64,000 nt of DNA from assembly GCA_965215275.1 (NCBI GenBank), contig OZ244044.1, forward strand, positions 192,001 through 256,000. The letters run 5' to 3'. Made by a program: the position numbers and the translations under genes. Positions 504 to 14,436 of the stretch are shown here, piece by piece. The stretch comes from Thermodesulfobacteriota bacterium. Its GTDB lineage: Bacteria; Desulfobacterota_D; UBA1144; Nemesobacterales; JAJCZQ01. Position 1 is the first letter of the stretch; the number at the start of each line of letters is the position of its first letter. Below the pieces are notes generated by a model that saw only the letters and a program-made list of their open reading frames with translations, was not told the origin of the DNA and did not search any database.

Positions 504-1910
504 CTACTTCATAAAATGTGTACTGTTGCCGTAGAACATTTCGGCAGCTTCCATAAAGGTTTCCGTAAGCGTTGGGTGCGGATGTACGGACAGTGATATA
601 TCGGACGCTAATGTTGCCATCTCTACTCCCAGAACACCTTCAGAGATAAGTTCTCCCGCCCCTGTTCCTGCTATCCCGGCGCCAAGCAGTCGCTCGGTTT
701 TAGCATCGAAGATCATTTTTGTCAGTCCATCTGTTTTATTGAGGGTCATGGCCCTGCCTGAAGCTCCCCATGGGAACCTGGTTATTTTTACATCTATATT
801 ATTCCGTCTGGCTTCTTTCTCCGTTAACCCGCACCATGCGATCTCAGGGTCGGTAAAGACCACTGCGGGTACGGCTGCTACGTCGTATATGACGTTTTGA
901 CCGGCAATGACCTCTGCGGCCACCCTGCCCTCATGAGTGGCCTTATGGGCGAGCATGGGTTCACCTGCCACGTCCCCTACGGCGTAAATGTTCGGTTCAT
1001 ACGTTCTTTTCTGTCTGTCCGTTTCAATAAATCCCATGCTGTTCACCTTTACCTTCGTGTTCTCAAGTCCGATACCTTCGGAGTTAGGTTGCCGTCCGGT
1101 TGATATCAGCACTTTGCTGAACTGACGTTCAAACTTACCGTCATCTTTGTTCTCGAACGTAACCTTTATCCCTTTATTCGTTTTTCTGACCCCGGTCACC
1201 TTTGTACCGAGCAGGATCAAGCTAAACTCCTTTTTCAGTTTTTTATAAAGAACGCTGGACAGGTCATTATCCGCCGCTTCGATTATAGAGTCGAGCATTT
1301 CCACGACCGTTACGTTCGAACCCAGGGACGCATATACCGTACCCATCTCGAGTCCTATGTATCCCCCACCGATAACCAGGAGTTCTTCTGGCACGCTTTC
1401 AAGCGCTAAGGCACCTTCTGAGTTCATTATTTTTTTATTATCCACTTTTATTCCGGGTATGTCTGCCGGTCTGGACCCCGTGGCAATGATACAGTTCTCA
1501 AAACTGACCGTCTCTTCAGAACCGTTCTCTTTCGTAACCTTCATTGTTTTTGAACTTGTAAGGGTCGCGGTTCCACTTATATAATTGATCTTTCTTTTTT
1601 TTACCAGAAAACCGGCCCCGCTCGTCAGCCTGTTTATTATCTGCTCCTTCCACTGCACCATTTTTTTCAGATCTATGCTGGGGTCGTCGTAAGTTATGCC
1701 GATCTTTTCTGCATCTTTTGATCCGCTTAGAACGCTCGCGGCGTGAAGTAACGCCTTTGACGGGATGCATCCACGGTAAAGGCACTCACCACCTGGGTTT
1801 TTTTCACGGTCTATCAGGGTAACCCTGAGTCCCAGGTCCGCGGCCCTGAAAGCTGCTGGATATCCCCCTGGACCGGCACCTATTATGGCTAACTGTGTGT
1901 TTATGCTCAT
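504..1910 (-). CDS. lpdA: Dihydrolipoyl dehydrogenase (E3)
   Basis: GAGPGG FAD motif, redox CLYRGCIPSK, GGGYIG NAD motif, C-terminal HPHPTLTE. Confidence 0.97.
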   Translation of the reverse strand: MSINTQLAIIGAGPGGYPAAFRAADLGLRVTLIDREKNPGGECLYRGCIPSKALLHAASVLSGSKDAEKIGITYDDPSIDLKKMVQWKEQIINRLTSGAGFLVKKRKINYISGTATLTSSKTMKVTKENGSEETVSFENCIIATGSRPADIPGIKVDNKKIMNSEGALALESVPEELLVIGGGYIGLEMGTVYASLGSNVTVVEMLDSIIEAADNDLSSVLYKKLKKEFSLILLGTKVTGVRKTNKGIKVTFENKDDGKFERQFSKVLISTGRQPNSEGIGLENTKVKVNSMGFIETDRQKRTYEPNIYAVGDVAGEPMLAHKATHEGRVAAEVIAGQNVIYDVAAVPAVVFTDPEIAWCGLTEKEARRNNIDVKITRFPWGASGRAMTLNKTDGLTKMIFDAKTERLLGAGIAGTGAGELISEGVLGVEMATLASDISLSVHPHPTLTETFMEAAEMFYGNSTHFMK

Positions 1911-3295
1911 TAATGTCCTTCAAACAGTATCTTGAACGGCTCTTCAAGAGCTCTTACTATCCATCTCAGGAACTCTGCGGCTGCCACCCCATCGATTATC
2001 CTGTGGTCATAAGATAAGGACAGAGGTATCAGGAGCCTCGGTTCGAATTTTCCATCTATATGGACCGGTTCGATCTTTGACTGGGAAACCCCGAGTATCG
2101 CAACGTCCGGATAGTAAATTATCGGTGAAAAGTACGTTCCACCCACGCCTCCAAGGTTACTGACGGTAAAAGTGCTTCCCTTCAGTTCGTCCGGGGTGAT
2201 CTTTTTATTCCTTACCCGGTCCGATATCTCTGACAGTTCTGACGCGATCTCTATGATGTTCTTACGGTTAGCGTTCCTTATGTTCGGAACGAACAGCCCG
2301 CGATCAGTGTCAACGGCAAAGCCTATATTAACGAACTTCTTATAGATTATCTCATTGCGTTCCATATCTATGCTCGCGTTGAAATCCTGAAAGACCATAA
2401 GTGCCGAAGCCACGACCTTTATCAGAATAGGAGTGATGGTCAGGTTCCCACCGGCTTCCTTGGCCTTTTGTTTGTTCTTTTTCCTGAGCGCGTCCAGTTC
2501 CGTAATATCGGCCTTATCATGCTGAGTTACGTGCGGGATGGTCCAGGCCATTGCAAGGTTTTCAGCCGTAAGTCTTCTTACGGTCGTCATCTTGACCTTC
2601 TCTATTTCCCCCCATTTGGTAAAATCGGGAAGTTCTGGAAGTCTGGCCTCGTATTTTCCTCTGTGCGTGGAGGTATGTGCATCATAGGCGATTATTATGC
2701 CTTTGGCGTGGTTTATGACGTCCTCAGCCGAGATCCTGCCACCTGGACCGGTACCAGACACTTTATCTATATCAACTCCAAGCTGCCGGGCCAGCTTTCT
2801 GGTGGAAGGAGCTGCAGGGATATGGACCTTTTTGTCTGCATTGACGATCGAGAGCATATTGTCCGCCTCATTACCCGTCCCGAGGTCCTTGTCCGACTTT
2901 TTATCTGAGGGGTCTGCCTCTGCTTTCTTTGATGAAGGCTGTTTGATCTCATCTGTAATTTTTTTATTTTCTTCATCTGCTCGTTTTACCGTATCTTCCT
3001 TTGGTCTTTCCTTTTTCGTCTTTTTTTCAACAGGTGCTTTTTTACTGACCTCTGCACCTTCTCCTTCTGTGACCTTTGCTATCAGCTGTCCTATATCTAT
3101 GGTGTCCCCTACGTTTACAAGCACTTCCTGGACCGTTCCGTCATAAGGGGATGGAAGCTCAATAGCGGCCTTGTCGGTTTCTATCTCGATGACCGGTTGT
3201 TCTTTCTTTATCGTGTCTCCACGTGACACGAAGACGTTTATGACCAGGGCTTTGTCTATACCTTCACCGATCTCAGGGAGCGATATGCTGTTCAT
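1910..3295 (-). CDS. aceF: Pyruvate dehydrogenase E2, single lipoyl domain
   Basis: Lipoyl ETDKA, E3-binding GTGPGGRI, catalytic DHRIIDG; lies between aceE and lpdA. Confidence 0.95.
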   Translation of the reverse strand: MNSISLPEIGEGIDKALVINVFVSRGDTIKKEQPVIEIETDKAAIELPSPYDGTVQEVLVNVGDTIDIGQLIAKVTEGEGAEVSKKAPVEKKTKKERPKEDTVKRADEENKKITDEIKQPSSKKAEADPSDKKSDKDLGTGNEADNMLSIVNADKKVHIPAAPSTRKLARQLGVDIDKVSGTGPGGRISAEDVINHAKGIIIAYDAHTSTHRGKYEARLPELPDFTKWGEIEKVKMTTVRRLTAENLAMAWTIPHVTQHDKADITELDALRKKNKQKAKEAGGNLTITPILIKVVASALMVFQDFNASIDMERNEIIYKKFVNIGFAVDTDRGLFVPNIRNANRKNIIEIASELSEISDRVRNKKITPDELKGSTFTVSNLGGVGGTYFSPIIYYPDVAILGVSQSKIEPVHIDGKFEPRLLIPLSLSYDHRIIDGVAAAEFLRWIVRALEEPFKILFEGH

Positions 3296-3304
3296 TAAAG
3301 TTCC

Positions 3305-5992
3305 TCATACGAACAATGGATTTGATTTATTAACATCTATTTTAAACTGCTTCTTGGCTTTATTCAGTAATTTCTTATCGATAATTCCCTTTTTATAGAG
3401 CTCTGCCAGGCTCGAGTACGCTATATGTTCCGCATTTACCTCAAAATGGTACCTGAGCATTTCTCTGTTGTCGCTTCTGCCAAAACCGTCCGTGCCAAGC
3501 GTTACGAGCGGCTTGGGAAACCACTTTGAGACGGTATAGGGCACTGCTTTTATATAATCACACACTGCAACGTATATACCGCTGTCGTTATTATCGAAAC
3601 ATCTTTCGATGTAGTTCTTTTTACGCTTTTTCCCCGCGTTCAGGATGTTCCATCTGTCCGTGTCCTGCGCATCTTTATAGAGTTCCTTGTAGCTCGTGAC
3701 GCTCCAGACGTCCGTGGTGATCCCGTATTGCGTCTCCAGTATTTTAGAAGCCCTTATCACTTCATTTAAAACGCCGCCACTTCCCAGAAGGTTTACGTGC
3801 CTTTCAGGGTCTCTTTCCGGACTTTCTTTAAAGCGGTACATACCTTTGATGATCCCTTCCTCTACGCCTTCCGGCATTGCCGGCTGTTCATATATTTCAT
3901 TCAGCAGCGTTACGTAATAGAAAACGTCTTCATACTCCATGTACATACGCCTGATACCGTCCTTGATGATAACCGCAAGTTCGTAAGCGTAAGCAGGATC
4001 ATACGCTATTATCGTAGGATAGGAAAAAGCGTAATGATGGCTGTTGCCATCCTGATGCTGCAGTCCCTCGCCGGCAAACGAACTCCTGCCGGAAGTGCAT
4101 CCGATAAAGAACCCTTTACATTTCATATCCGACCCCGCCCAGATAAGGTCCCCTACCCTCTGAAAGCCGAACATCGAATAGAACGTGAAAAAAGGGATGG
4201 TATTTACACCATGGGTCGCATAGGCGGTGCCGGCAGCTATGAACGATGAGAATGCCCCTGCTTCGGTTATTCCTTCTTCCAGTATCTGTCCATCCGTTGC
4301 TTCTTTGTAATAAAGGAAAGTATCAGAATCCACTGGCTCGTAAACCTGTCCCACATGGGAATATATACCTGCCTGTCTGAAAAGGGATTCCATACCGAAC
4401 GACCTTGCTTCATCAGGGATGATAGGTACTATCAGCTTTCCGATCTCCTTGTCCCTCAGGAGTTTTGAAAGCAGTCTTACATAAGCCATGGTGGTTGCTG
4501 CACCTCTGCCACCGGAACCTTTGTAGAATTCGTCAAATACCGTCTCATCATATCCTTTTATGGGCTGTCCCAGCACTTTTCTTGCAGGCAGATAGCCTCC
4601 GAGTTTTTCCCTTTGCTGTTTTAGATATTCGACTTCAGGACTGTCATCGTCCGGTTTGTAGAACGGTGCTCTGGCAACGTCTTCATCTGATATTGGTATA
4701 CTGAAACGCGTTCTGAACTCCTTAAGTTCCTCTTCGTTCAGTTTTTTCTGATTATGAGTAACGTTCCTGCCTTCTCCAGCCTCTCCCAGTCCATATCCCT
4801 TTATCGTTTTTGCAAGTATGACCGTTGGCTCTCCTTTATGTCCGGTGGCCTCTTTATATGCCGCATACACCTTTTCACTGTCATGTCCGCCTCTTCTCAG
4901 CTTTTCAAGTTCGTAGTCCGAATACGTTCTCACGAGGTCTTTCAGCTTCGGATGGGTCCCGAAAAAATGTTCCCTTATGTATGCACCGTCTTCAACTATG
5001 TACTTCTGATAGTCACCGTCCACGGCACTTTCCATCCTTTGAACGAGCAGTCCATCTTCATCTTTTTCCAAAAGAGGGTCCCAGTCGTCACCCCATATCA
5101 GCTTGATGACGTTCCACCCTGCGCCTCTGAATATCCTTTCGAGCTCCTGTATTATCTTTCCATTTCCTCTGACGGGACCGTCCAGTCTTTGCAGATTGCA
5201 GTTCACTACGAATATCAGATTGTCAAGACTTTCTCTTGACGCAAGGGTTATTGCCCCAAGGGATTCAGGTTCATCGGTCTCACCATCTCCCATGAAAACC
5301 CAGACCTTGCTGTCTATATTCTTTTTTAATCCCCTGTCTTCAAGATATCTGTTGAACCTTGCCTGATAGATCGCCATGATCGGAGAAAGTCCCATGGAGA
5401 CGGTGGGGATCTCCCAGAAATCCGGCATAAGCCATGGATGTGGATATGAGGACAGCCCGGCACCATGGGTCAGTTCTTTTCTGTAGTTCCTGATCTGCTT
5501 GACCGTGATCCTTCCCTCAAGGAAAGCACGGGCGTATATACCCGGAGCGGCATGCCCTTGAAAATAAACTATATCTCCATCCTGATTTTCGTTACTGGCT
5601 TTCAGGAAGTGATGGAACGCCACTTCGAACAAAGTAGCACAGGAAGCGTAAGTGGAGATATGACCTCCTATACCTTCATCGTTCCTGTTGGCCCTCACGA
5701 CCATTGCCATCGCGTTCCACCTTATGATGTTCCTGATCCTTCGCTCTATATCTGTATTCCCTGGATACTTGGGCTGTTTACTGAAGGGAATTGTATTTAT
5801 ATAAGGCGTGTTGGCGGTATAAGGTACTGCTATGCCCGCTTTTTGCGAGTATATCTGAAGATTTCTCAGTAACTTTTGGACCCTGGCGTGTCCAGAGGTC
5901 TTGAGAACGGCCTCCAGGGATTCTATCCACTCCCTGTCTTCTGTTTCTTCTTGATGTTCCACACTTTCGTCTTTTTGGTATGACATGGACAT
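3305..5992 (-). CDS. aceE: Pyruvate dehydrogenase E1, homodimeric type
   Basis: GGHISTYAS, LSSYPHPWLMP, GDGETDEPES TPP motif, GEGLQHQDG. Confidence 0.97.
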   Translation of the reverse strand: MSMSYQKDESVEHQEETEDREWIESLEAVLKTSGHARVQKLLRNLQIYSQKAGIAVPYTANTPYINTIPFSKQPKYPGNTDIERRIRNIIRWNAMAMVVRANRNDEGIGGHISTYASCATLFEVAFHHFLKASNENQDGDIVYFQGHAAPGIYARAFLEGRITVKQIRNYRKELTHGAGLSSYPHPWLMPDFWEIPTVSMGLSPIMAIYQARFNRYLEDRGLKKNIDSKVWVFMGDGETDEPESLGAITLASRESLDNLIFVVNCNLQRLDGPVRGNGKIIQELERIFRGAGWNVIKLIWGDDWDPLLEKDEDGLLVQRMESAVDGDYQKYIVEDGAYIREHFFGTHPKLKDLVRTYSDYELEKLRRGGHDSEKVYAAYKEATGHKGEPTVILAKTIKGYGLGEAGEGRNVTHNQKKLNEEELKEFRTRFSIPISDEDVARAPFYKPDDDSPEVEYLKQQREKLGGYLPARKVLGQPIKGYDETVFDEFYKGSGGRGAATTMAYVRLLSKLLRDKEIGKLIVPIIPDEARSFGMESLFRQAGIYSHVGQVYEPVDSDTFLYYKEATDGQILEEGITEAGAFSSFIAAGTAYATHGVNTIPFFTFYSMFGFQRVGDLIWAGSDMKCKGFFIGCTSGRSSFAGEGLQHQDGNSHHYAFSYPTIIAYDPAYAYELAVIIKDGIRRMYMEYEDVFYYVTLLNEIYEQPAMPEGVEEGIIKGMYRFKESPERDPERHVNLLGSGGVLNEVIRASKILETQYGITTDVWSVTSYKELYKDAQDTDRWNILNAGKKRKKNYIERCFDNNDSGIYVAVCDYIKAVPYTVSKWFPKPLVTLGTDGFGRSDNREMLRYHFEVNAEHIAYSSLAELYKKGIIDKKLLNKAKKQFKIDVNKSNPLFV

Positions 5993-6097
5993 TTCTCTTC
6001 AGCAATTTTAATCAATAGTGAAAAAAGTAAAAGGTTTATAATGAACGTAATATAGTTATATAAGGGAATTATAGTGAATAGTTGACAGGAAGAAAAA

Positions 6098-6126
6098 TTG
6101 AAAACGGGTCAGAAAATGGGTAATAT
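6098..6126 (+). promoter_or_regulatory. Putative sigma70 promoter of tnpB1 (leaderless)
   Basis: TTGAAA-17nt-TAATAT, 6 nt before ATG 6133; no SD. Confidence 0.5.
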
Positions 6127-6132
6127 TATAGC

Positions 6133-7347
6133 ATGGTTAGAACGATCACAAGAACTGTAAAGGCAGATAGTGTTTTTCATAAAAGGCTGGATGAATTCTT
6201 ACAACAGCTTACCGACCTGTATAACGGAGCTTTATATCACAGATTAAGATCTTATGACTGGTATGAAAAAACTATCTCTAAATACGAACAGTTTAACGAA
6301 CTAACTGAGGTCCGAGAGCAAGACAAGGAATTTGAAAAGTTTAATGTTGTAGCTCAAAGAAGCGTTCTGGAAAGACTGGATAATGCATATAGTCCTTATT
6401 TGAACTATTTAAAGAATAAAAAAGCAGGAAAGAAGGTGGGCAGACCAAAATACAAAGGTCCAAACAGACCTGTCAGAAGTTTTGAAACAAACAATTATAA
6501 AAACATTGAAAAGATCGGCAGAAGAACGTATTTAACGATAAAGGGACTTGGCAGATTATCTTTCAAAGGTTCTATGCCTGATGGAGTTGTTTTAAAACAA
6601 CCTAAAACAACAATAAGGATAGTTAAAACTGCTATAAGGATAAAGATCCAGTTTCTATGTGAGTTTACCAGCGAAAAGAAAAGACCTATGGACAGGTCCA
6701 TAGGGATCGATCTTGGAATTATAAACAGAATGGCTTTTTCAGATGGAACTAAAATACCAGGAGTTCGGTTGAACAGAAAGGAACTGAAAAGAAAGCAGAG
6801 AATTGTTTCAAGAGCGGTAAAAGGTTCTGACAGCAGAAAGAAGAAAGTTTTATCGTTAGCAAAGGAATGGGAACGAACTACCGATCGTGAAAATAACGCT
6901 ATACACAGAATGACTACCGAAATAGTAAAAAAGAACAATCATATAAAGTTGGAGGATTTAAAGATCCAAAATATGGTAAAAAATCCTTATTTAGCAAGAA
7001 GTGTAACGGAACAGCAATGGGGGAAGATTAAAACCCAACTTGACTACAAAGCCGAGATAGCTGGAGGCAAGTTAGTTTTAGTTAATTCCCATTATACAAC
7101 AATGACCTGTTCTGAATGCGGAAAGGTAAATCCAAAACTGCCTTTGTCTGAAAGAGTATTTAACTGTATATATTGCGGTTATTCAGAAGACAGGGATATA
7201 AATGCAGGTAAAAATATCAATACTCTTAATGAAGGAGACTTCATATCGGGTGGGAATAAGGTAGAAATACTCCCGATGAGTGCTAAGAGTATCAGATCAA
7301 AAGAGAACAGGGATAGAGGAACTCTGCACTCAGAACAGTACGAGTAG
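6133..7347 (+). CDS. tnpB: RNA-guided endonuclease TnpB
   Basis: GRPKYK, RuvC-I GIDLG, RuvC-II LEDL, zinc finger CSEC...CIYC, RuvC-III DRDINA; D-E-D triad intact. Confidence 0.95.
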   Translation: MVRTITRTVKADSVFHKRLDEFLQQLTDLYNGALYHRLRSYDWYEKTISKYEQFNELTEVREQDKEFEKFNVVAQRSVLERLDNAYSPYLNYLKNKKAGKKVGRPKYKGPNRPVRSFETNNYKNIEKIGRRTYLTIKGLGRLSFKGSMPDGVVLKQPKTTIRIVKTAIRIKIQFLCEFTSEKKRPMDRSIGIDLGIINRMAFSDGTKIPGVRLNRKELKRKQRIVSRAVKGSDSRKKKVLSLAKEWERTTDRENNAIHRMTTEIVKKNNHIKLEDLKIQNMVKNPYLARSVTEQQWGKIKTQLDYKAEIAGGKLVLVNSHYTTMTCSECGKVNPKLPLSERVFNCIYCGYSEDRDINAGKNINTLNEGDFISGGNKVEILPMSAKSIRSKENRDRGTLHSEQYE

Positions 7348-7396
7348 TTGTTTGTCAACTATTCACTATAATTCCCTTACATAAGTAATGCCAATG
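7241..7396 (+). ncRNA. Predicted omega-RNA of tnpB1 (scaffold to 7376, guide about 7377-7396)
   Basis: Stems ATCGGG/CCCGAT, GAGTGC/GCACTC with AGAGT/ACTCT, and GAGTAGTTG/CAACTATTC; loop GGGAAT complementary to terminal ATTCCC; boundaries inferred. Confidence 0.6.
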
Positions 7397-7466
7397 GCAG
7401 AAAAACCATGTAATATATACCTGATTCATTATTGACCAGAATAATGATACATATGATATTAATCCT

Positions 7467-8897
7467 ATGAAAAAATTCGACCTGACTATTATCGGTTCCG
7501 GACCGGGTGGGTATATAGCAGGAATTCGTGCTGCACAGCTTGGTATGAACGTTGCGGTAATTGAACGTGACAAACCTGGTGGGGTCTGTCTGAACTGGGG
7601 CTGTATACCTTCTAAAGCGATACTTAAATGTGCAGAAGTTTACAACTATATTATCAGTTCGGAAAATTACGGTATTAAAGCGGACGGGGTTTCGTACGAC
7701 TACTCAAAAGTAGTAGATAAAAGCCAAAATGCATCATCGACCTTGAACAAAGGTGTTGAGTTCCTGCTTAAAAAGAACAACGTCACCCTGTTCAAAGGGG
7801 TCGGAAAGATCGTAAAGGAAGATCAGATAGCCGTTCTTAACAAGGAAAGCACTGAGATCCATTCGGATAAGGTCCTTATAGCTACCGGCTCGGTACCAAG
7901 AACGATCCCCGGTCTGGAAATAGACGGCAAAATAGTTATGACCAGTGATGAAGCGATCAGACACCGCGAAGTTCCCAGATCCGTTGTAATTATAGGCGGT
8001 GGTTATATAGGAGTGGAATTTGCCTACGTTTATAACTCTTTCGGCAGTAAAGTTACGATCGTTGAAATGGAAAAGAACATTATTCCAGGGGCTGATGAGG
8101 AAGTCGCACAGGAACTGCGGAAGATCTTTAAAAAACAAGGGATAGAGGTACTTACTGAAACTAAATACAGGTCTGTCAAAAAGCAGAAGACATCCGCTAC
8201 CGTAACGGTCGAGAACGTACGCTCAGGTGAGGAAAAAAATATAAAAGCTTCGTTGGTGTTGGTTGCAATTGGGCGGAGAGCAGTTGCAAATGCTTCCCCG
8301 TCTTCTTTCAGTTATTACGGAAAGAAGGAAAGTCTTGGGCTTGAAGAGATCGGCGTTGAGCTCAGTGATGACGGTTTTATCAAGGTCGATAAGGATTATA
8401 TGACGACTAAAAACAATATCTATGCCATTGGCGACGTCATAGGTCCCCCTCTGCTGGCACATAAAGCCTCCGAAGAAGGTGTTGCGGCGGTAGAGATCAT
8501 GAACGGGATCAAAAGCAAGGTTCACTATAACAAGATACCGGGCTGCGTTTATTGTCAGCCCGAAGTAAGTACCCTCGGTCTTACCGAAAAACAGGTAAAG
8601 GAACAGGGTTTTGACTACACGGTCGGGAAATTTCCGTTCAAGGCCGCAGGAAAAGCCGTTGCCGTAGGTGATACAGATGGATTTGTAAAGATCCTGTCTG
8701 ACAAAAGGACCGGCGAGATACTCGGAGCTCATATCATAGGACATGGAGCCACGGAACTGATAGCAGAACTTGGCCTGGCGTCTTCCCTTGAAGCCACGCC
8801 CCTTGAGATCTCATACACCTCTCATGCTCACCCTACTCTTTCTGAAGCGATCATGGAAGCTGCACTGGGAGCGTTAGGAAGAACGCGCAATTTCTGA
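7467..8897 (+). CDS. lpdA: Dihydrolipoyl dehydrogenase (second paralog)
   Basis: GSGPGG, CLNWGCIPSK, HAHPTLSE. Confidence 0.96.
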   Translation: MKKFDLTIIGSGPGGYIAGIRAAQLGMNVAVIERDKPGGVCLNWGCIPSKAILKCAEVYNYIISSENYGIKADGVSYDYSKVVDKSQNASSTLNKGVEFLLKKNNVTLFKGVGKIVKEDQIAVLNKESTEIHSDKVLIATGSVPRTIPGLEIDGKIVMTSDEAIRHREVPRSVVIIGGGYIGVEFAYVYNSFGSKVTIVEMEKNIIPGADEEVAQELRKIFKKQGIEVLTETKYRSVKKQKTSATVTVENVRSGEEKNIKASLVLVAIGRRAVANASPSSFSYYGKKESLGLEEIGVELSDDGFIKVDKDYMTTKNNIYAIGDVIGPPLLAHKASEEGVAAVEIMNGIKSKVHYNKIPGCVYCQPEVSTLGLTEKQVKEQGFDYTVGKFPFKAAGKAVAVGDTDGFVKILSDKRTGEILGAHIIGHGATELIAELGLASSLEATPLEISYTSHAHPTLSEAIMEAALGALGRTRNF

Positions 8898-8926
8898 ACA
8901 TCCTGCCGTTCAAGTCGTTTACTGCC

Positions 8927-9601
8927 ATGAGCACGCTTGATATATACCACCTTGGAACGATCAGTTACAAGGATGCCATGGATATACAGTTCAAGCTGCT
9001 CGAAAAGAGGATCAATAAAGAGATAAACGACTCTCTTTTACTGCTTGAGCATCCATCAACGATCACAATTGGCAGAAGCGGTAAAAGATCCAATCTTCTT
9101 ATTTCCGACAGTTATTTAAAAAGCAGAAATATAGAATTTTTTGAAACGAACAGAGGTGGGGACATAACGTTCCATGGTCCGGGACAGATCGTATGCTACC
9201 CGATCATAGACCTGGATGATCGCACAAAGGACGTTCATAAGTATATAAGGGATTTGGAAGAAATAATTATAGAGACCCTTAAGGAATTTGACGTTGAAGG
9301 GCAGAGGATCGATGGACTGACCGGAGTATGGACGAAGGGGTGCAAGGTCGCGTCTATTGGAGTGGGTATAAGAAGATGGACCACCTATCATGGGTTTGCC
9401 ATTAATGTAAATACTGACCTTGATCTTTTTGATCTTATAATCCCATGTGGAATTGCTGACGTTGAAATGACCTCTATAAAACGCTGTAATGACCTTGAAG
9501 ACAAAATAGAGATGGATTCCGTCTGTAAGATCATTATTGAAAAGTTCATTAACGAGTTTAAGTATCTTGAAACAGAGGAAAAAACGTTAGTTACTGACTG
9601 A
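8927..9601 (+). CDS. lipB: Lipoyl(octanoyl) transferase
   Basis: LEHP, RGGDITFHGPGQ, KVASIG, HGFAIN, IIPCG. Confidence 0.96.
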   Translation: MSTLDIYHLGTISYKDAMDIQFKLLEKRINKEINDSLLLLEHPSTITIGRSGKRSNLLISDSYLKSRNIEFFETNRGGDITFHGPGQIVCYPIIDLDDRTKDVHKYIRDLEEIIIETLKEFDVEGQRIDGLTGVWTKGCKVASIGVGIRRWTTYHGFAINVNTDLDLFDLIIPCGIADVEMTSIKRCNDLEDKIEMDSVCKIIIEKFINEFKYLETEEKTLVTD

Positions 9602-9697
9602 AACGACCCTGTCTAAGGCAAATTTCTCTTCCCTGTGCTCTCTATACTTCCTGCACAAATAATCTAACCTATACATACTAATGAAAGCACATTGTTG

Positions 9698-10360
9698 TCA
9701 CGGTATTTGTGAACCTAACTGTCCTGTGTCAGCGTCGACCGCTATGCAAGGGTTGCTCGTAGGACTGAAGAAGGACCAAACGCCGGTGCAATCAGCCATA
9801 TTCAAAGCATTTAGCTGTGTTCCATCATCATCCAGTACCGGTATAGGAAGGTTTGCAGAGTCAGATGCTTCTTGTACAAGAACATAAGGACACTTAATAA
9901 TGTCCGCCATTTCCGGGGCATTGGGACGACCTGACCAAAAACCACGCCATTCTTTTTCATTCATATTGTTTTGTACAAGGTTGTATATTCCGGGATTGAT
10001 AAATTCACCAGGGCGGGATTCAACGCTGGTCTGGTAAAACAGCACCATGGAATTTCTTCCAGGATTTCCTTTACTATCTTGCTGATTGGAACCGATGTAT
10101 CCTACTTGTCTAAAATGGTGTCGCCTGCCATTATCGTCAATGAATGTGCTTGTAGCCAGTATGTTGTTTTCGTTAAGCGTTACCTCTTCCATAACTTCAA
10201 AAGCACATATTGGCGTATTATTTGCCCCTAATGTTGTATAATATCCAACCCACTCCACTGGGGCTGGAGAACTGTCCTTACTATCACATGCGAATATAGT
10301 TGCTCCAGCAAGTAGAATTCCTGCAAATACTGAACTAATCTTTTTGTAATGTCGTAAAAT
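9698..10360 (-). CDS. Hypothetical lipoprotein, extended upstream of the ORF-track start to an ATT codon
   Basis: In-frame extension ILRHYKKISSVFAGILLAGATIFA-CDSK is a type II signal peptide; AGGAG SD 7 nt before ATT at 10360. Confidence 0.65.
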   Translation of the reverse strand: MLRHYKKISSVFAGILLAGATIFACDSKDSSPAPVEWVGYYTTLGANNTPICAFEVMEEVTLNENNILATSTFIDDNGRRHHFRQVGYIGSNQQDSKGNPGRNSMVLFYQTSVESRPGEFINPGIYNLVQNNMNEKEWRGFWSGRPNAPEMADIIKCPYVLVQEASDSANLPIPVLDDDGTQLNALNMADCTGVWSFFSPTSNPCIAVDADTGQLGSQIP

Positions 10361-10387
10361 AATATTTCTCCTGATAGATTTTCTCCA

Positions 10388-10416
10388 AATTTATTACAGA
10401 GGATCATATTTGTCAA
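10388..10416 (-). promoter_or_regulatory. Putative sigma70 promoter of the lipoprotein gene; -35 box lies in the TSD of element 2
   Basis: TTGACA (10416-10411)-17nt-TAAATT. Confidence 0.5.
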
Positions 10417-10540
10417 TGGGAACTATATACTTAAGTATCCAGTGGATACTAAAAGTTCTCTTTGACGAGTCATAGACCAGTTCCTGTCCCCAACCCCTCT
10501 GCAGTCTCCCCGTCCAATCACCCCTTTCCCTGAGGCTATA
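10398..10540 (-). ncRNA. Predicted omega-RNA of tnpB2 (scaffold to 10418, guide about 10417-10398)
   Basis: Sense-strand stems GCCTC/GGGGT with loop AGGGAAA, GACGGG/CTCGTC with AGACT/GGTCT, and AGTATCC/GGATACT; terminal TTCCC complementary to loop GGGAA. Confidence 0.6.
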
Positions 10541-11640
10541 ATTTGTTTTATTCCAGTTTCCAACTGGTTAAATGCAGCATTTAAGTCAGCATTAACTTCA
10601 TAACCGCAAGATGTACACTTAAATCTGGATTGCGATCTTCTGTTATCAGGAGATCTGTGTCCGCATTCAGAACAGGTTTGACTGGTATATGCAGCTGGAA
10701 CTTCTTCAGTAGCATTACACTTGTAATCCAGCATCCTTTTCATATCAAACCAGCCAGTAGCACGAATGTTCCTGTTCATCTTGCGAAAGTTCTTCCATTT
10801 CTTTCTGGCTGTCATCCCTTGTGTATTAAGTCTCTCAAGTACAGGAACATCATAAAGATCGGAGATCTTTCTTGTAACCTGATGTCTCCAGTCCTTCTGT
10901 CTGTTTGCCAGCTTCCTATGAAGTTTCTGTAACCTTTCCTTAGTAATTCTCCACCTGTTACTTCTCTCTTCCTGACGTGCAAGTTTCTTTTGGTATCTGC
11001 GTATCTTTGCTTCTGTAAGTTCATCATCAGATAACTTAAAAACCTGTCCGTCAGACAGCGTAACCTGTCTTGAATTCCTGTCCATTGCTACAACTCTTAC
11101 TTCTTTCTTTTCCTTTTTAGTTTCATCTATCTCATAGGTAAGGTACGCATACCACTTACCGCATTCCTTCCTTATCCTGCCAGAAAGGAACTTTCCATCA
11201 GGATATGGATTCTTACCTGCCAACCTGAACCATCCAACCTTTAAAATACGGAGCCACTTATTATCTGACAGTTTAGCTGACTGATAATTTACCGGGAATG
11301 AAGGAGTGGTTTTTAATTTACTCTTGAATTTAGGTTGTCCCGATTTTCCATCCCTGTATCTCTTACAGGCATTTGTAAGGTCCAGTAAATAATGCTGAAG
11401 TATGTAAGCAGATGCTTCTTTCAGAAAGTAGTTCTTTTCTTCTTTCTTCAATTCTCTCAAATCGTTACCTAAACTCTCATGACCATAACCATCATTAAAA
11501 TCATTATCCTTTAAATTTCCCACGAATTGATTCCAGATAAACCTGCAACAGCCAGCAGTAGAGGAAAGTTTATGAAACTTCTCCCTGTTGTTTGATCTCA
11601 ACCTCTGCCTTACCGTTCTTATTGTCTTACCTTCTTTCAT
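10423..11640 (-). CDS. tnpB: RNA-guided endonuclease TnpB (divergent from tnpB1)
   Basis: CRFIWN, GQPKFK, RuvC-I AMDRN, RuvC-II LERL, YTSQTCSEC...CTSC, RuvC-III NADLNAA; stop codon lies inside the TIR. Confidence 0.95.
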   Translation of the reverse strand: MKEGKTIRTVRQRLRSNNREKFHKLSSTAGCCRFIWNQFVGNLKDNDFNDGYGHESLGNDLRELKKEEKNYFLKEASAYILQHYLLDLTNACKRYRDGKSGQPKFKSKLKTTPSFPVNYQSAKLSDNKWLRILKVGWFRLAGKNPYPDGKFLSGRIRKECGKWYAYLTYEIDETKKEKKEVRVVAMDRNSRQVTLSDGQVFKLSDDELTEAKIRRYQKKLARQEERSNRWRITKERLQKLHRKLANRQKDWRHQVTRKISDLYDVPVLERLNTQGMTARKKWKNFRKMNRNIRATGWFDMKRMLDYKCNATEEVPAAYTSQTCSECGHRSPDNRRSQSRFKCTSCGYEVNADLNAAFNQLETGIKQIIASGKGVIGRGDCRGVGDRNWSMTRQRELLVSTGYLSI

Positions 11641-11647
11641 ATTTGTA

Positions 11648-11676
11648 ATTTTACCTTATTCCCTTGCTTTTTTTAA
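11648..11676 (-). promoter_or_regulatory. Putative promoter of tnpB2 (leaderless)
   Basis: TTAAAA-17nt-TAAAAT, 7 nt before ATG 11640. Confidence 0.45.
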
Positions 11677-11918
11677 GTAGTTTGGATAGTTAAGTATATA
11701 GTCCCCTTGTCAATTAAGGGATCTGCCGTATGTTCAATATTCAATCGCAGATGTTTTAATATGAATAACTTGATAAGTTAAGTAATTGTTTTCAGGAGAA
11801 AGAGTTTTTCCGAACACGAGCCTCAAGGACATTACACGGTAACGCACCCGTTCTCCTCAACGAACTTATAAAAGAAAACCAGGTTGTAATTCTATCTTGT
11901 GTTTTGCTGTCAATATTA

Positions 11919-14436
11919 TCAGGTCTTTATCCGAGACCTAATCTTCCTTCTTATCACAACAGATACAGGTATAAGCATCAGCGATGCCACTGCTGTGAGC
12001 ATATCAGGAACGGCTTCGCTCTGACCGGAGACCGCACATCCTCCTCCGCCTGTATCACTACCTGATGACGTTGGTCTTTGTGTCGGTGGTCTTGTTGTTG
12101 GTGGGTCTGTCGGTCCTGGCGGCGTAGTTGTTACCCTGATCGTAAATCTCAGCTCATCCGTATCTCCATCTTCGTCCGTTACCTTATATGTATAACTGCC
12201 AGAAGATACAGCAGTCGGTGTTCCGCTGATAACTCTGTCAGTTTCACTGAAAGCAAGTCCAGCAGGTAAACCAGTAGCAGGTAAAAGAGGGGACAGGCTG
12301 TAGGTCAGTTCTCCATTCCCTGCTGTTGCCTCAGGCAGTGTTTCTTTTATTGCAGTTCCCGGCACGTAATTCTTATCTGGTATGGTCCAGTTGTTAAACG
12401 TCGGCGTGTCCCCAGACATATGACCATAGACCTTTATGTTCCATGAGTGTAAGGTCCCCGTACCTGCAATTGAATTGTTAGTTATCTTCAAGGTCCACTC
12501 TCCAGCAGGGTCCGTTCCTAAGTGATTGGCTAAACCAAAACGATGTTCCCTGCCTGTGTACTTAAAGTCGTCTACAGTAAGAGATCCGTCAGATAAATGT
12601 GATAACGCTTCTGATGCATATTCCTCAGTGAGTTTTGACACGGTAGTATCGTCAGGAGAAGTTATTTCTATATCTAAAAAAGGAAAGAAAGGATGGGTAA
12701 AATTGATACCTATCTCTATAAATTCCGTAAATACCTCAGTGTCTGGTATATCTATATCAGGTACTGTCAGTGTGAAAACAACTGAAACGTCTTCTGCGTT
12801 TTCCCCCGTTGTGAAGTCTGGTATAACCGTATTGATATTACCCGAGGAAACCGTCACGGGTTTCATTTGCGGTGGAACGTTGGTCCAGCTTTCTGCAAGT
12901 TCCACTGCAGCTGCAGCGTCTACTGTGCCAAAAGTATCTACTGTGCCAAAACCGAACTTTGGATTGTAAAAATAATACTCTGAATCAGAACCGTATTGAA
13001 GTGCTACTCTCTTCCATTCTTGGGTATCACCGGAACGGGAGCCCTGGCTGGCTGAACCTGCCAAGATCAGTTTCAGGTCTCGCCAGCTAAGATCACTGTT
13101 TACCTCTCTCATCAGTGCTGCAATTCCTGAAACGACCGCTGCTGAATTTGACGTTCCAGGGAACTCAAAAGTATAACCGTCGTTATTGTCGGTAGTTACA
13201 ATACCGGAACCCGGTGCACATACCCATAGATTGTATCCCTCTTCTGAAAAGGAACTCTTAGTAACAGCGAGCGCATCCCTATCGATCTCTGATGAACATA
13301 CGGTAGTTACTGCGTAGTAGTTGGAATACTCATCAAAATTAGCCTGGTCTGATCCTTCATGTCCGTCCCCTGCCGCCCATACGTAAAACACCCCTTTACC
13401 ACCAAATCCTTCTCTTATACCCGTTCTCACCCCTTCTTCCCACTCTGATGAAGCCTCTGTAAGAACGGGAAGGTCCTTCGGTCCCCAGTTGTTGACCGAT
13501 ACAGCAGTTATATCCTTATTACGGACCATGGCGTCCTTTGCATTAGCATCACTGAAGTTACCAGCTAAATTATAACTGTAGATGTTTGCCTCAGGTGCTA
13601 CACCTCTTACTCCAAGGCTGTTATCACCCACTGCTGCTATAATGCCAGCTACACGTGTTCCACGACCACTGAAAGGACTGTACAGATCACCATTCCCAGA
13701 GTAATCATGAGAAAGTGTGGTATCTACATTGTCAGCAAGGTCCTCATGGTCTGTGTCCATACCATGATCTACCACCGCTACGTTAATCCCAGCACCAAAT
13801 ACGGCATCATCCCAGACATCTTCTATGTTTATGTCTATATCTTGTCTGGCGGAGGTTTGGAATACCTTATCGCCACCTAATATTACATCAACCGCTGGAG
13901 ATTCCAGATACCACTGACAGCCGTATAAGGGATCATTTGGAAAATTGGTAGTAATAATTGAACAGGTTTCAAAGAGTTGATTAGAATCAGCTAATTGAAC
14001 TTGAACTCGATAGGATGTAGCACCACTGCTTCCTACAACGATATAGTACGTTCCCCGTCTGAGGTGAGTTTGTATAGATATATTTCCTAGTAGCCTTTCA
14101 TCACTTGGGTCCACTACTTCAGTAGTACTTGCTATCAGATCATCATTACTGTCACATACCTGTAGGCTGTATTCCTGATCATTGGAGAAGGGGAAGGTTA
14201 CCAATATATCTGCAATAAAATCTCCATTTATGTTTATCTGAAAGTAATGCGGATCAGCACCGGCAGCTAAACTTCCATTGTGTGTTGGTCCTTGCACTCT
14301 CAACGTAGCTTCGGTCGTTGCACTGGAGTCACAGTTGTTAATGCTGGTCTTACCATATGCACTAATGGACACAAAGCACAGAAGAAAGAAAAAAGGAATT
14401 AATAACTTATGGGGGGGGGGGGAGAAACTTCAACAT
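11919..14436 (-). CDS. Surface-anchored S8 (kexin-like) subtilase homolog with P-domain, Ig-like domain and GGGGC-TM-basic tail; frameshifted in a C12 tract
   Basis: VAVVDHG, xGTRVAGIIAA, GTSNSA, GEWTLKI P-domain, ISGTPT Ig-like repeat, PT linker; ATG 14436 joins the 817-aa ORF if the C12 run loses one base. Confidence 0.85.
12919..12951. repeat. 18-bp-period in-frame tandem duplication (FGTVDT/FGTVDA)
   Basis: tctactgtgccaaaa at 12919-12933 and 12937-12951. Confidence 0.85.
14411..14422. repeat. G12 homopolymer in the signal-peptide coding region
   Basis: 12 consecutive G. Confidence 0.95.

Follow-up and report, generated by a model that had tools for sequence, protein, structure and literature searches.

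The 64,000-nucleotide stretch of DNA analysed here, the window (Thermodesulfobacteriota bacterium, contig OZ244044.1, positions 192,001 to 256,000), carries at its positions 6064-7376 a mobile element of 1,313 bp, which we call element 1. Its only gene is an intact tnpB, it is without a transposase gene of its own, and it is bounded by a perfectly matching pair of 24-bp terminal inverted repeats (TIRs; 6064-87 and 7353-76), flanked by 8-bp repeats (6056-63 and 7377-84) that are identical at 7/8 positions and differ at the fourth base. An original prediction, made from the letters of the window, held that the 3' end of tnpB folds into an omega-RNA that closes by a pseudoknot on the tip of the right TIR. 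Comparison with related loci supports such a double role of the TIR, assigns the ends to the IS1595 family and points to homing by TnpB as the probable explanation of where these elements are found.

Four public DNA runs were compared with positions 5600-7900 of the window, and a second comparison added runs X7, X8 and X9. In run X6, a 5,775-base contig joins 6055 to 7377; the 1,321 bases that it skips are element 1 plus one 8-bp copy, the right-hand version of the duplication being kept. Read-through across the empty site was found again in X6 and also in X7 (two samples of one study), X8 gave nothing there and X9 a short piece, and the filled left junction is present in X1, X4 and X5. Insertion of element 1 duplicated 8 bp, a natural empty site exists, and both ends of the element are confirmed. 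The same runs hold further traces. Loose ends in X6 and X7 suggest another insertion, with TG ahead of a perfect duplication, whose ends appear to pair across different contigs, and contigs of X1 and X4 skip 394 bases inside tnpB (6849-7244, with 35 bases on the short side), possibly from an internally deleted copy that retains the RNA region.

The product of the gene, TnpB1, scores 206 bits against NF040570 (cut-off 100) and is also above the cut-offs of PF07282 and PF01385, and among natural structures it is closest to ISDra2 TnpB (E 5e-31; PDB 8H1J, 8BF8). Residues D193, E274 and D355, the RuvC triad, align with the ISDra2 motifs and, like these, are presumably catalytic; the C4 zinc finger is intact. 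Among 72 relatives, the triad is conserved in 72/72, 71/72 and 72/72 cases, respectively, and the four cysteines in 72/72. These matches place TnpB1 in the TnpB family, as a predicted RNA-guided nuclease. It scores below the cut-offs of the IS200_TnpB model (187; cut-off 425) and the IS607_TnpB model (110; cut-off 350). Relatives at 35-41% identity are numerous, two being named Ca. Dadabacteria by their source; they are present in 22/36 genomes of one genus of the same order (below, the relative genus) and in 0/4 other genomes of the window's family. IS1595 transposases occur in 10/10 checked genomes of the relative genus.

The genome to which the window belongs (1.99 Mb in one contig, G000:C1) holds eight full copies of element 1 and three of element 2, a second tnpB-bearing element of the window. 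The other seven copies of the element 1 family (family A) lie at different sites and are 85-97% identical to it, and the duplication is perfect (8/8) in four of the eight. TnpB profiles find 24 matches in the genome, and the 19 that pass the cut-off form five families: A (element 1), B (element 2) and the longer C, D and E. Paired TIRs that start with GGG enclose 18 of these 19 genes, the 19th having a clear right and a degenerate left TIR. The same genome has 28 matches to IS1595 DDE transposases and 20 to the IS1595 zinc ribbon; many of the transposase matches sit within TIRs of the same GGG-start type with 8-bp duplications, and such duplications and TIRs are described as typical of the IS1595 family (PMC8101967). 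No Y1 TnpA lies in element 1 and the genome has one weak match (E 1.3e-5), 1.7 Mb away; the serine resolvase profile PF00239 has 0 matches in the genome. Given the shared TIR type, the 8-bp duplications and the balance of 28 IS1595 matches to one weak Y1 and no resolvase match, element 1 is, as judged by sequence, an IS1595 derivative, and a non-autonomous one because only tnpB lies inside. Shared ends, many copies and the empty allele make it likely that it is moved in trans by IS1595 transposases encoded elsewhere in the genome. The transposase end of the original prediction would accordingly be an IS1595 end that is served in trans.

Other memberships were considered and rejected: IS200/IS605 in view of the 24-bp TIRs, the 8-bp duplication, the missing Y1 TnpA inside the element and the IS200_TnpB score below cut-off, and IS607 in view of the 0 PF00239 matches and the IS607_TnpB model below its cut-off. 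An IS630-type TA duplication, with a TIR one base longer, was dropped because both the other copies and the empty site agree with a duplication of 8 bp. The TIR of element 1, which may be ISNwi1-like, is at best identical at 17-19/24 positions to the TIRs of transposase-coding elements, the closest TIR (20/24) being that of a cargo element in the same genome. The cargo elements with the nearest TIRs lie at G000:C1 17470-21955, 1028600-1033127 and 1898058-1900957, and no transposase match is present in the first two. Several transposase elements carry genes that, by motif, are putatively methyltransferase-like. About 150 unpaired TIR-like ends are found in G000:C1, part of them chance and the rest relics of heavy IS1595 activity.

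For the RNA, 90 loci were picked by protein similarity; anchoring caught 79 of them and missed 11, L243 and L246 were mis-anchored and dropped, and the remaining 77 gave 74 distinct RNAs. In element 1, all the motifs of the original prediction are in place: ATCGGG (7245-50) and CCCGAT (7272-77), which form stem P1, GGGAAT (7252-57) and ATTCCC (7371-76), the stems GAGTGC (7278)/GCACTC (7326) and AGAGT (7286)/ACTCT (7321), and the hairpin GAGTAGTTG (7342)/CAACTATTC (7356), of 9 bp with one G-U pair and followed by 12 nt to 7376. P1 is paired in 444/444 cells of the 74 RNAs, with double changes at two positions. It is capped by a GGTA-GAAA-TACT hairpin (7260-71), so that GGGAAT, placed by the original prediction in the loop of P1, has the right position but lies in an internal loop. 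Of the nested stems, GAGTGC/GCACTC (P2) is paired in 439/444 cells, with double changes at all six positions, whereas AGAGT/ACTCT keeps only 2-3 of its 5 pairs in the eight copies of families C, D and E; better supported is an inner stem AGAG (7302-05)/CTCT (7322-25), which is replaced by a compensatory AGGT/ACCT in family D. In the terminal hairpin P4, the basal pairs hold in 74, 73, 73, 69 and 56 of the 74 RNAs and the 5' arm changes along with the TIR variants. The terminal hairpin averages -7.1 kcal/mol at right ends (77), -2.8 at left ends (59) and -3.4 at control ends (48), i.e. the ends of tnpB-free elements.

The pseudoknot is predicted to have a core of four pairs, 7252-55 with 7373-76 (GGGA/TCCC), and a loose extension beyond: pairs 1-6 hold in 74, 74, 72, 72, 54 and 35 of the 74 RNAs, hence the GGGAAT/ATTCCC pairing originally proposed is conserved in its 4-bp core and not in pairs 5 and 6. 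Double changes occur at pair 3 (L183, L271) and pair 5 (three of four family-E copies). GGGAAT has a frequency of 0.34 per kb per strand, and GGGA stands at the matching distance in 5/48 control ends. Family E reads the loop in another frame and the motif survives, so coding does not explain it. The eight family-A copies share 96.8% identity in the scaffold and 89.5% in the body of the gene. No Rfam match was found up to E 1 within 5900-12000. Among 21 listed runs, no RNA run carried the sequence, which does not bear on its expression. Altogether, with P4 covarying with the TIR, right ends folding better and GGGA facing TCCC, the comparison supports that the right TIR doubles as RNA scaffold, providing the last hairpin and one pseudoknot strand of the predicted omega-RNA, in addition to serving as transposase end.

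Insertion sites were compared at 46 distinct sites with at least 6/8 identity in the duplication (8 here and 38 in relatives, a few being the same site in two genomes). As controls served 24 elements that have these TIRs but no tnpB; read in both directions, they give 48 ends. A G directly 5' of the left duplication is found in 45/46 insertions versus 6/48 control ends (p 5e-19), and the mirror-image C on the right side in 8/46. When the controls are oriented by their transposase, G occurs in 4/20 on one side and 1/20 on the other, all four lying in the relative genus (4/12); in the window's genome, it occurs in 0/8 oriented controls versus 8/8 tnpB copies. The base before the G is T in 7/8 copies here, and T in 19, G in 13, C in 3 and A in 3 of the relatives. 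A target-adjacent motif (TAM) would leave such a trace, a base that is fixed on one side only and stands right before the predicted protospacer, and we thus predict that this G is part of the TAM. Its position directly 5' of the duplication would make the duplication the seed of the guide. In family B, TA stands directly before the duplication in 3/3 copies. The orientation-specific G, together with the intact catalytic residues and the natural empty allele, supports the earlier proposal that TnpB is functionally integrated into the element, as a prediction. The features of the locus are collected in Table 1.

Table 1. Features of element 1 and of the second tnpB-bearing element, in window coordinates
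Feature	Position	Strand	Basis or remark
Predicted TAM, directly 5' of the target duplication; AG here	6054-6055	+	function inferred
Left copy of the target duplication, 8 bp	6056-6063	+	empty allele has the right-hand version
Left TIR, 24 bp, IS1595 type	6064-6087	+	sequence comparison
Sigma-70-like promoter match (9/12), just 5' of tnpB	6098-6126	+	consensus match only; 9 found vs 5.0 expected
tnpB, 404 aa; 3' end overlaps the predicted RNA scaffold	6133-7347	+	profile and structure matches
P1 (7245-50/7272-77) with internal loop and GNRA-capped hairpin (7260-71)	7245-7277	+	covariation
Predicted 5' strand of the pseudoknot; GGGA (7252-55) is the conserved core	7252-7257	+	comparison
P2 (7278-83/7326-31), with an A-rich strand inside it and an inner stem, the latter likely 7302-05/7322-25	7278-7331	+	covariation
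P4, terminal hairpin with the TIR as 3' arm (7338-40/7367-69 and 7342-50/7356-64)	7338-7369	+	covariation
Right TIR, 24 bp; includes the predicted 3' strand of the pseudoknot (7371-76)	7353-7376	+	the empty-site contig confirms this end
Predicted guide of ~16 nt, with the right duplication (7377-84) as would-be seed	7377-7392	+	inferred; start may be 7378
Element 2 (family B); tnpB 27% identical to TnpB1, same TIR type, perfect 8-bp duplication	10418-11706	-	sequence comparison

The guide of the original prediction, 7377-96, has the sequence as written there, but in the ISDra2 structure the guide measures 16 nt rather than 20. In the genome, the predicted guide has one perfect match, its own flank, which is preceded by CC, and no G-preceded genomic site lies within 2 mismatches of it. 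The guide of another family-A copy, copy 1441464 (G000:C1 1442783-1442798), matches the tnpB genes of all eight A copies with 2-3 mismatches at a G-preceded site (window ~6520-6535, minus strand); this is probably chance in AT-rich DNA, where 92 sites with up to 3 mismatches exist. The copy with a perfect 8-base seed match to that guide is frameshifted nearby.

With this in mind, we propose that the transcript would fold into P1, P2 and P4 with a pseudoknot of 4-6 bp to the TIR tip, as the covariation suggests, in the layout of ISDra2 with the TnpA hairpin replaced by one built from the TIR. The guide would start at 7377 or one base later, with the duplication as its seed, and because of the duplication it would equal the empty allele. 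TnpB would read a short, G-ending TAM 5' of the duplication (TG in family A, perhaps TG-T) and cut empty alleles, be it on sister chromosomes, at precisely excised sites or in DNA of strains without the insertion, and repair from the filled copy would restore or spread the element. Once the site is filled, CC stands before the full guide match and no more than 8-9 bases match on the TAM side, so that self-cutting would be avoided. An insertion lacking the G would go unprotected and be lost, which would account for the skew. Homing via TnpB cutting and repair has been described for IS605 and IS607 (PMC13565253), and we regard homing by TnpB on an IS1595-ended element as the best explanation of the data and a probable one.

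Several observations weigh against this account. On the side of the RNA, the anchor pattern includes the loop motif and 77/90 loci were used, so loop conservation is partly built in. The fold of element 1 alone is only modestly better than shuffles (z = -2.44; P1 alone, z = -0.77) and the unconstrained minimum-energy fold breaks P1 (-34.4 kcal/mol, versus -33.5 kcal/mol when the pseudoknot strands are kept free); hence the case rests on the comparison. Within the pseudoknot, pairs 1-2 are invariant and thus uninformative, pair 3 fails in 2 and pairs 5 and 6 in 20 and 39 of the 74 RNAs, and many changes at pair 5 are uncompensated. In an alignment of 56 rows (56 of the 77 loci), the pseudoknot and the P4 base together gave 37 double-change cells versus 9.9 in shuffled data (0/500), with every slid register scoring lower, but most of these double changes lie in P4 rather than in the pseudoknot, and kinship inflates such tests. 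On the side of the sites, element 1 has AG where the other seven family-A copies have TG, and families C, D and E have A at the position of the G (4/4), like the background, which perhaps reflects a changed TAM. The empty allele of X6 and X7 differs at guide position 14 and by two unplaced bases within 5960-6064, and a two-gene element with transposase and tnpB was not found in this genome. Furthermore, tnpB-free IS1595 elements survive at sites that lack the G. Selection must therefore be strong, and it is not obvious that selection alone would be fast enough to give 45/46.

Alternatively, TnpB or its ribonucleoprotein (RNP) would bias the site and orientation of IS1595 insertion, the G being chosen at insertion. 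Such steering would suit a skew that is nearly absolute and one-sided (45/46, against 8/46 for the mirror) and the persistence of tnpB-free elements without G; yet a new target cannot match the old guide, and homing explains the sign of the skew by known biology (PMC13565253), which leaves steering an unlikely alternative in our view. Still less probable, we think, is that tnpB is a passive passenger, with the G reflecting an asymmetric target preference of the transposase and the match of loop and tip arising as a by-product of TIR and coding constraints. In favour of a passenger, the transposase constrains the TIR tips in any case, the G is present in some controls whose TIRs are of cognate type (L169, L301), and 4/12 singly oriented controls of the relative genus have it on the 5' side of the transposase. 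However, a passenger accounts poorly for the contrast between 0/8 oriented controls and 8/8 tnpB copies in this genome, for a P4 5' arm that tracks TIR changes at the right end only, for a loop conserved independently of reading frame, and for intact catalytic sites.

A wider reading, to which we give about as little credence as to steering, is that IS1595-ended TnpBs make up a distinct OMEGA class, which arose repeatedly and whose TnpB governs the DDE step itself. The RNP would sit on the left TIR (TAM and 8-base seed) without cutting and block excision, and would direct the IS1595 transposase, in a single orientation, to sites that bear a TAM; if true, an RNA-guided nuclease would here be tied in a minimal way to DDE transposition, outside Tn7. 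At the left junction that it creates, each insertion leaves a predicted TAM and 8 bases that match the seed (6056-6064 here). In element 1, the left duplication is altered at base 4, which would weaken RNP binding there.

Provided that homing is right, the exact start of the guide is a matter of closer balance. We somewhat favour 7377, since the G adjoins base 1 of the duplication, over 7378, which comes not far behind. In the latter case, T7377 would belong to the scaffold and the TAM would read TG-T, as may be expected because the last scaffold base of ISDra2 is unpaired and base 1 appears fixed by TnpB lineage. Indeed, the ISDra2 pseudoknot ends at -2 and leaves -1 out, while in element 1 Watson-Crick pairs extend to the final base. 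The duplication begins with T at 17/17 right ends of families A, C, D and E versus 8/20 control ends here (p 7e-5), and at 14/17 in one relative subclade versus 0/32 in another (subclades chosen after the tree), and this first base tracks TnpB lineage more than TIR type. Precedent exists in IS607 TnpB, which is described as taking the right-flanking base into its scaffold (PMC10711439). Against the shift, the first base varies across the clade (A 23, T 12 and C 3 of 38) while the preceding G is nearly fixed, AT-rich target choice accounts for part of the first-base bias, and L193, of the group at 28-34% identity, pairs its loop to -7..-2 with the last TIR base free, like ISDra2. A boundary lying further out, as in Fanzors, is the least credible of the options and very improbable: here the whole duplication would be scaffold, the guide would start at 7385 and the TAM would lie within the left duplication. 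For Fanzor1 and Fanzor2* on DDE elements, the target-site duplication (TSD) is predicted or reported as scaffold (PMC10711439, PMC13565253), but the duplication here is merely AT-rich and variable, with no fixed motif at its 3' end, and the base that is fixed stands outside it on the 5' side, at a distance of 9 bases from the protospacer that such a layout would have.

As to the origin of the association, a second TIR-bound TnpB in the relative genus, family F, has another scaffold and the loop GGGAAT in 8/12 of its loci (L124, L125, L126, L129, L130, L133, L135, L139, L140, L142, L143, L146), with a purine before the duplication in 10/10 and A as first duplicated base in 11/11. Element 2 likewise has a hairpin loop of its own, GGGAA, opposite the tip TTCCC. 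A contig search gave only distant relatives (best-segment identity 26-47%), ten of which entered the first tree set. A quick tree of 44 proteins separates the A clade (support 100) from a clade of B and F (99), and forcing them together is modestly rejected in the approximately unbiased (AU) test (p-AU 0.033; 22 rows, long branches); for this reason TnpB was probably captured at least twice.

TnpB on DDE elements with TIRs is already published. Altae-Tran 2023 describes six DDE-linked TnpB branches (DDE-1 to DDE-6) with TIRs, and solo TnpBs with the same ends that are moved in trans (PMC10691335); these have in common with element 1 a TnpB within TIRs and a gene 3' end near the element end. 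Its main text names IS630 only and IS1595 figures just in a profile list, and no RNA structure, pseudoknot or guide boundary was found in the accessible part of that paper (PMC10691335). A 2026 review lists ISL2, IS630 and IS1031 as TnpB-linked DDE families (PMC13565253). For DDE-5, listed as one of the branches with rearranged catalytic sites, a TA motif is reported that stands 8 bp ahead of the element end (PMC10691335). The motifs seen here (G or TG in family A, TA in family B) have this geometry; the canonical triad of family A argues against that branch. We found no published case of an IS1595-borne TnpB in a search of listings and abstract openings, mostly outside subscription literature, and Fig. 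4 or Additional files 10-11 of Altae-Tran 2023 may include one.

As in ISDra2 (PMC10097598), the predicted scaffold overlaps the tnpB 3' end, with four stems, a pseudoknot to the last bases and a 16-nt flank guide in that system. ISDra2 differs in having hairpin ends, with neither TIR nor duplication (PMC13565253), and a 5-base TAM that is the TnpA target, whereas element 1 has TIR ends, a duplicated target, a pseudoknot reaching base -1 and a motif of ~2 bases. In IS607 TnpB (ISXfa1) and in Fanzor1 and Fanzor2* of cut-and-paste elements, the RNA boundary is reported to adapt to a new transposase, with TIRs in the scaffold, and the pseudoknot is kept in IS607 and Fanzor2 (PMC10711439). There, the scaffold takes in the TSD or a flanking base that is fixed; in element 1, a variable 8-bp duplication would mostly be guide and the TAM would lie outside. 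The IS1595 family, for its part, shares the 8-bp duplications, the TIRs and partners with zinc ribbon and DDE transposase, and includes passenger-carrying and non-autonomous forms (PMC8101967). Different from those elements, element 1 has no transposase inside and its cargo is a predicted RNA-guided nuclease whose RNA appears to have co-evolved with the TIR.

Why prokaryotic TnpB stays with scarless-excision transposons, and of what use it would be to a DDE element, is a question still asked (PMC10711439, PMC13565253). The IS1595-TnpB family makes it testable, since it offers dozens of natural insertions, a predicted TAM, a site seen both filled and empty, and a single genome with cognate transposases. 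Another fit of guide to transposase is also suggested, in which a variable 8-bp duplication acts as seed with the TAM outside. Should the TAM indeed be two bases that end in G, a nuclease of 400 residues with such a motif would be useful for editing.

Some loci depart from these families. Distant TnpBs (26-34%) with GGTAGTG-type ends were seen at L193 (2890-4092), L212, L205, L198, L201 and L210, with no IS1595 transposase match found near them; in L193, the TIR is perfect, the duplication matches at 8/8 and the loop GTAGTG is complementary to the tip. Families C, D and E (G000:C1 735945-737502, 1616480-1618027 and 772121-773673, with kin at L162-L165 and L229-L232) have an insert of ~70 residues near the N terminus. 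In the window, element 1 lies between divergent genes of pyruvate dehydrogenase type (504-8897), which we presume, from the look of the sequences and, for one, the profile match PF21948, to be E1, E2 and E3 on the minus strand and, on the plus strand, another E3-like gene along with one for a lipoyl transferase.

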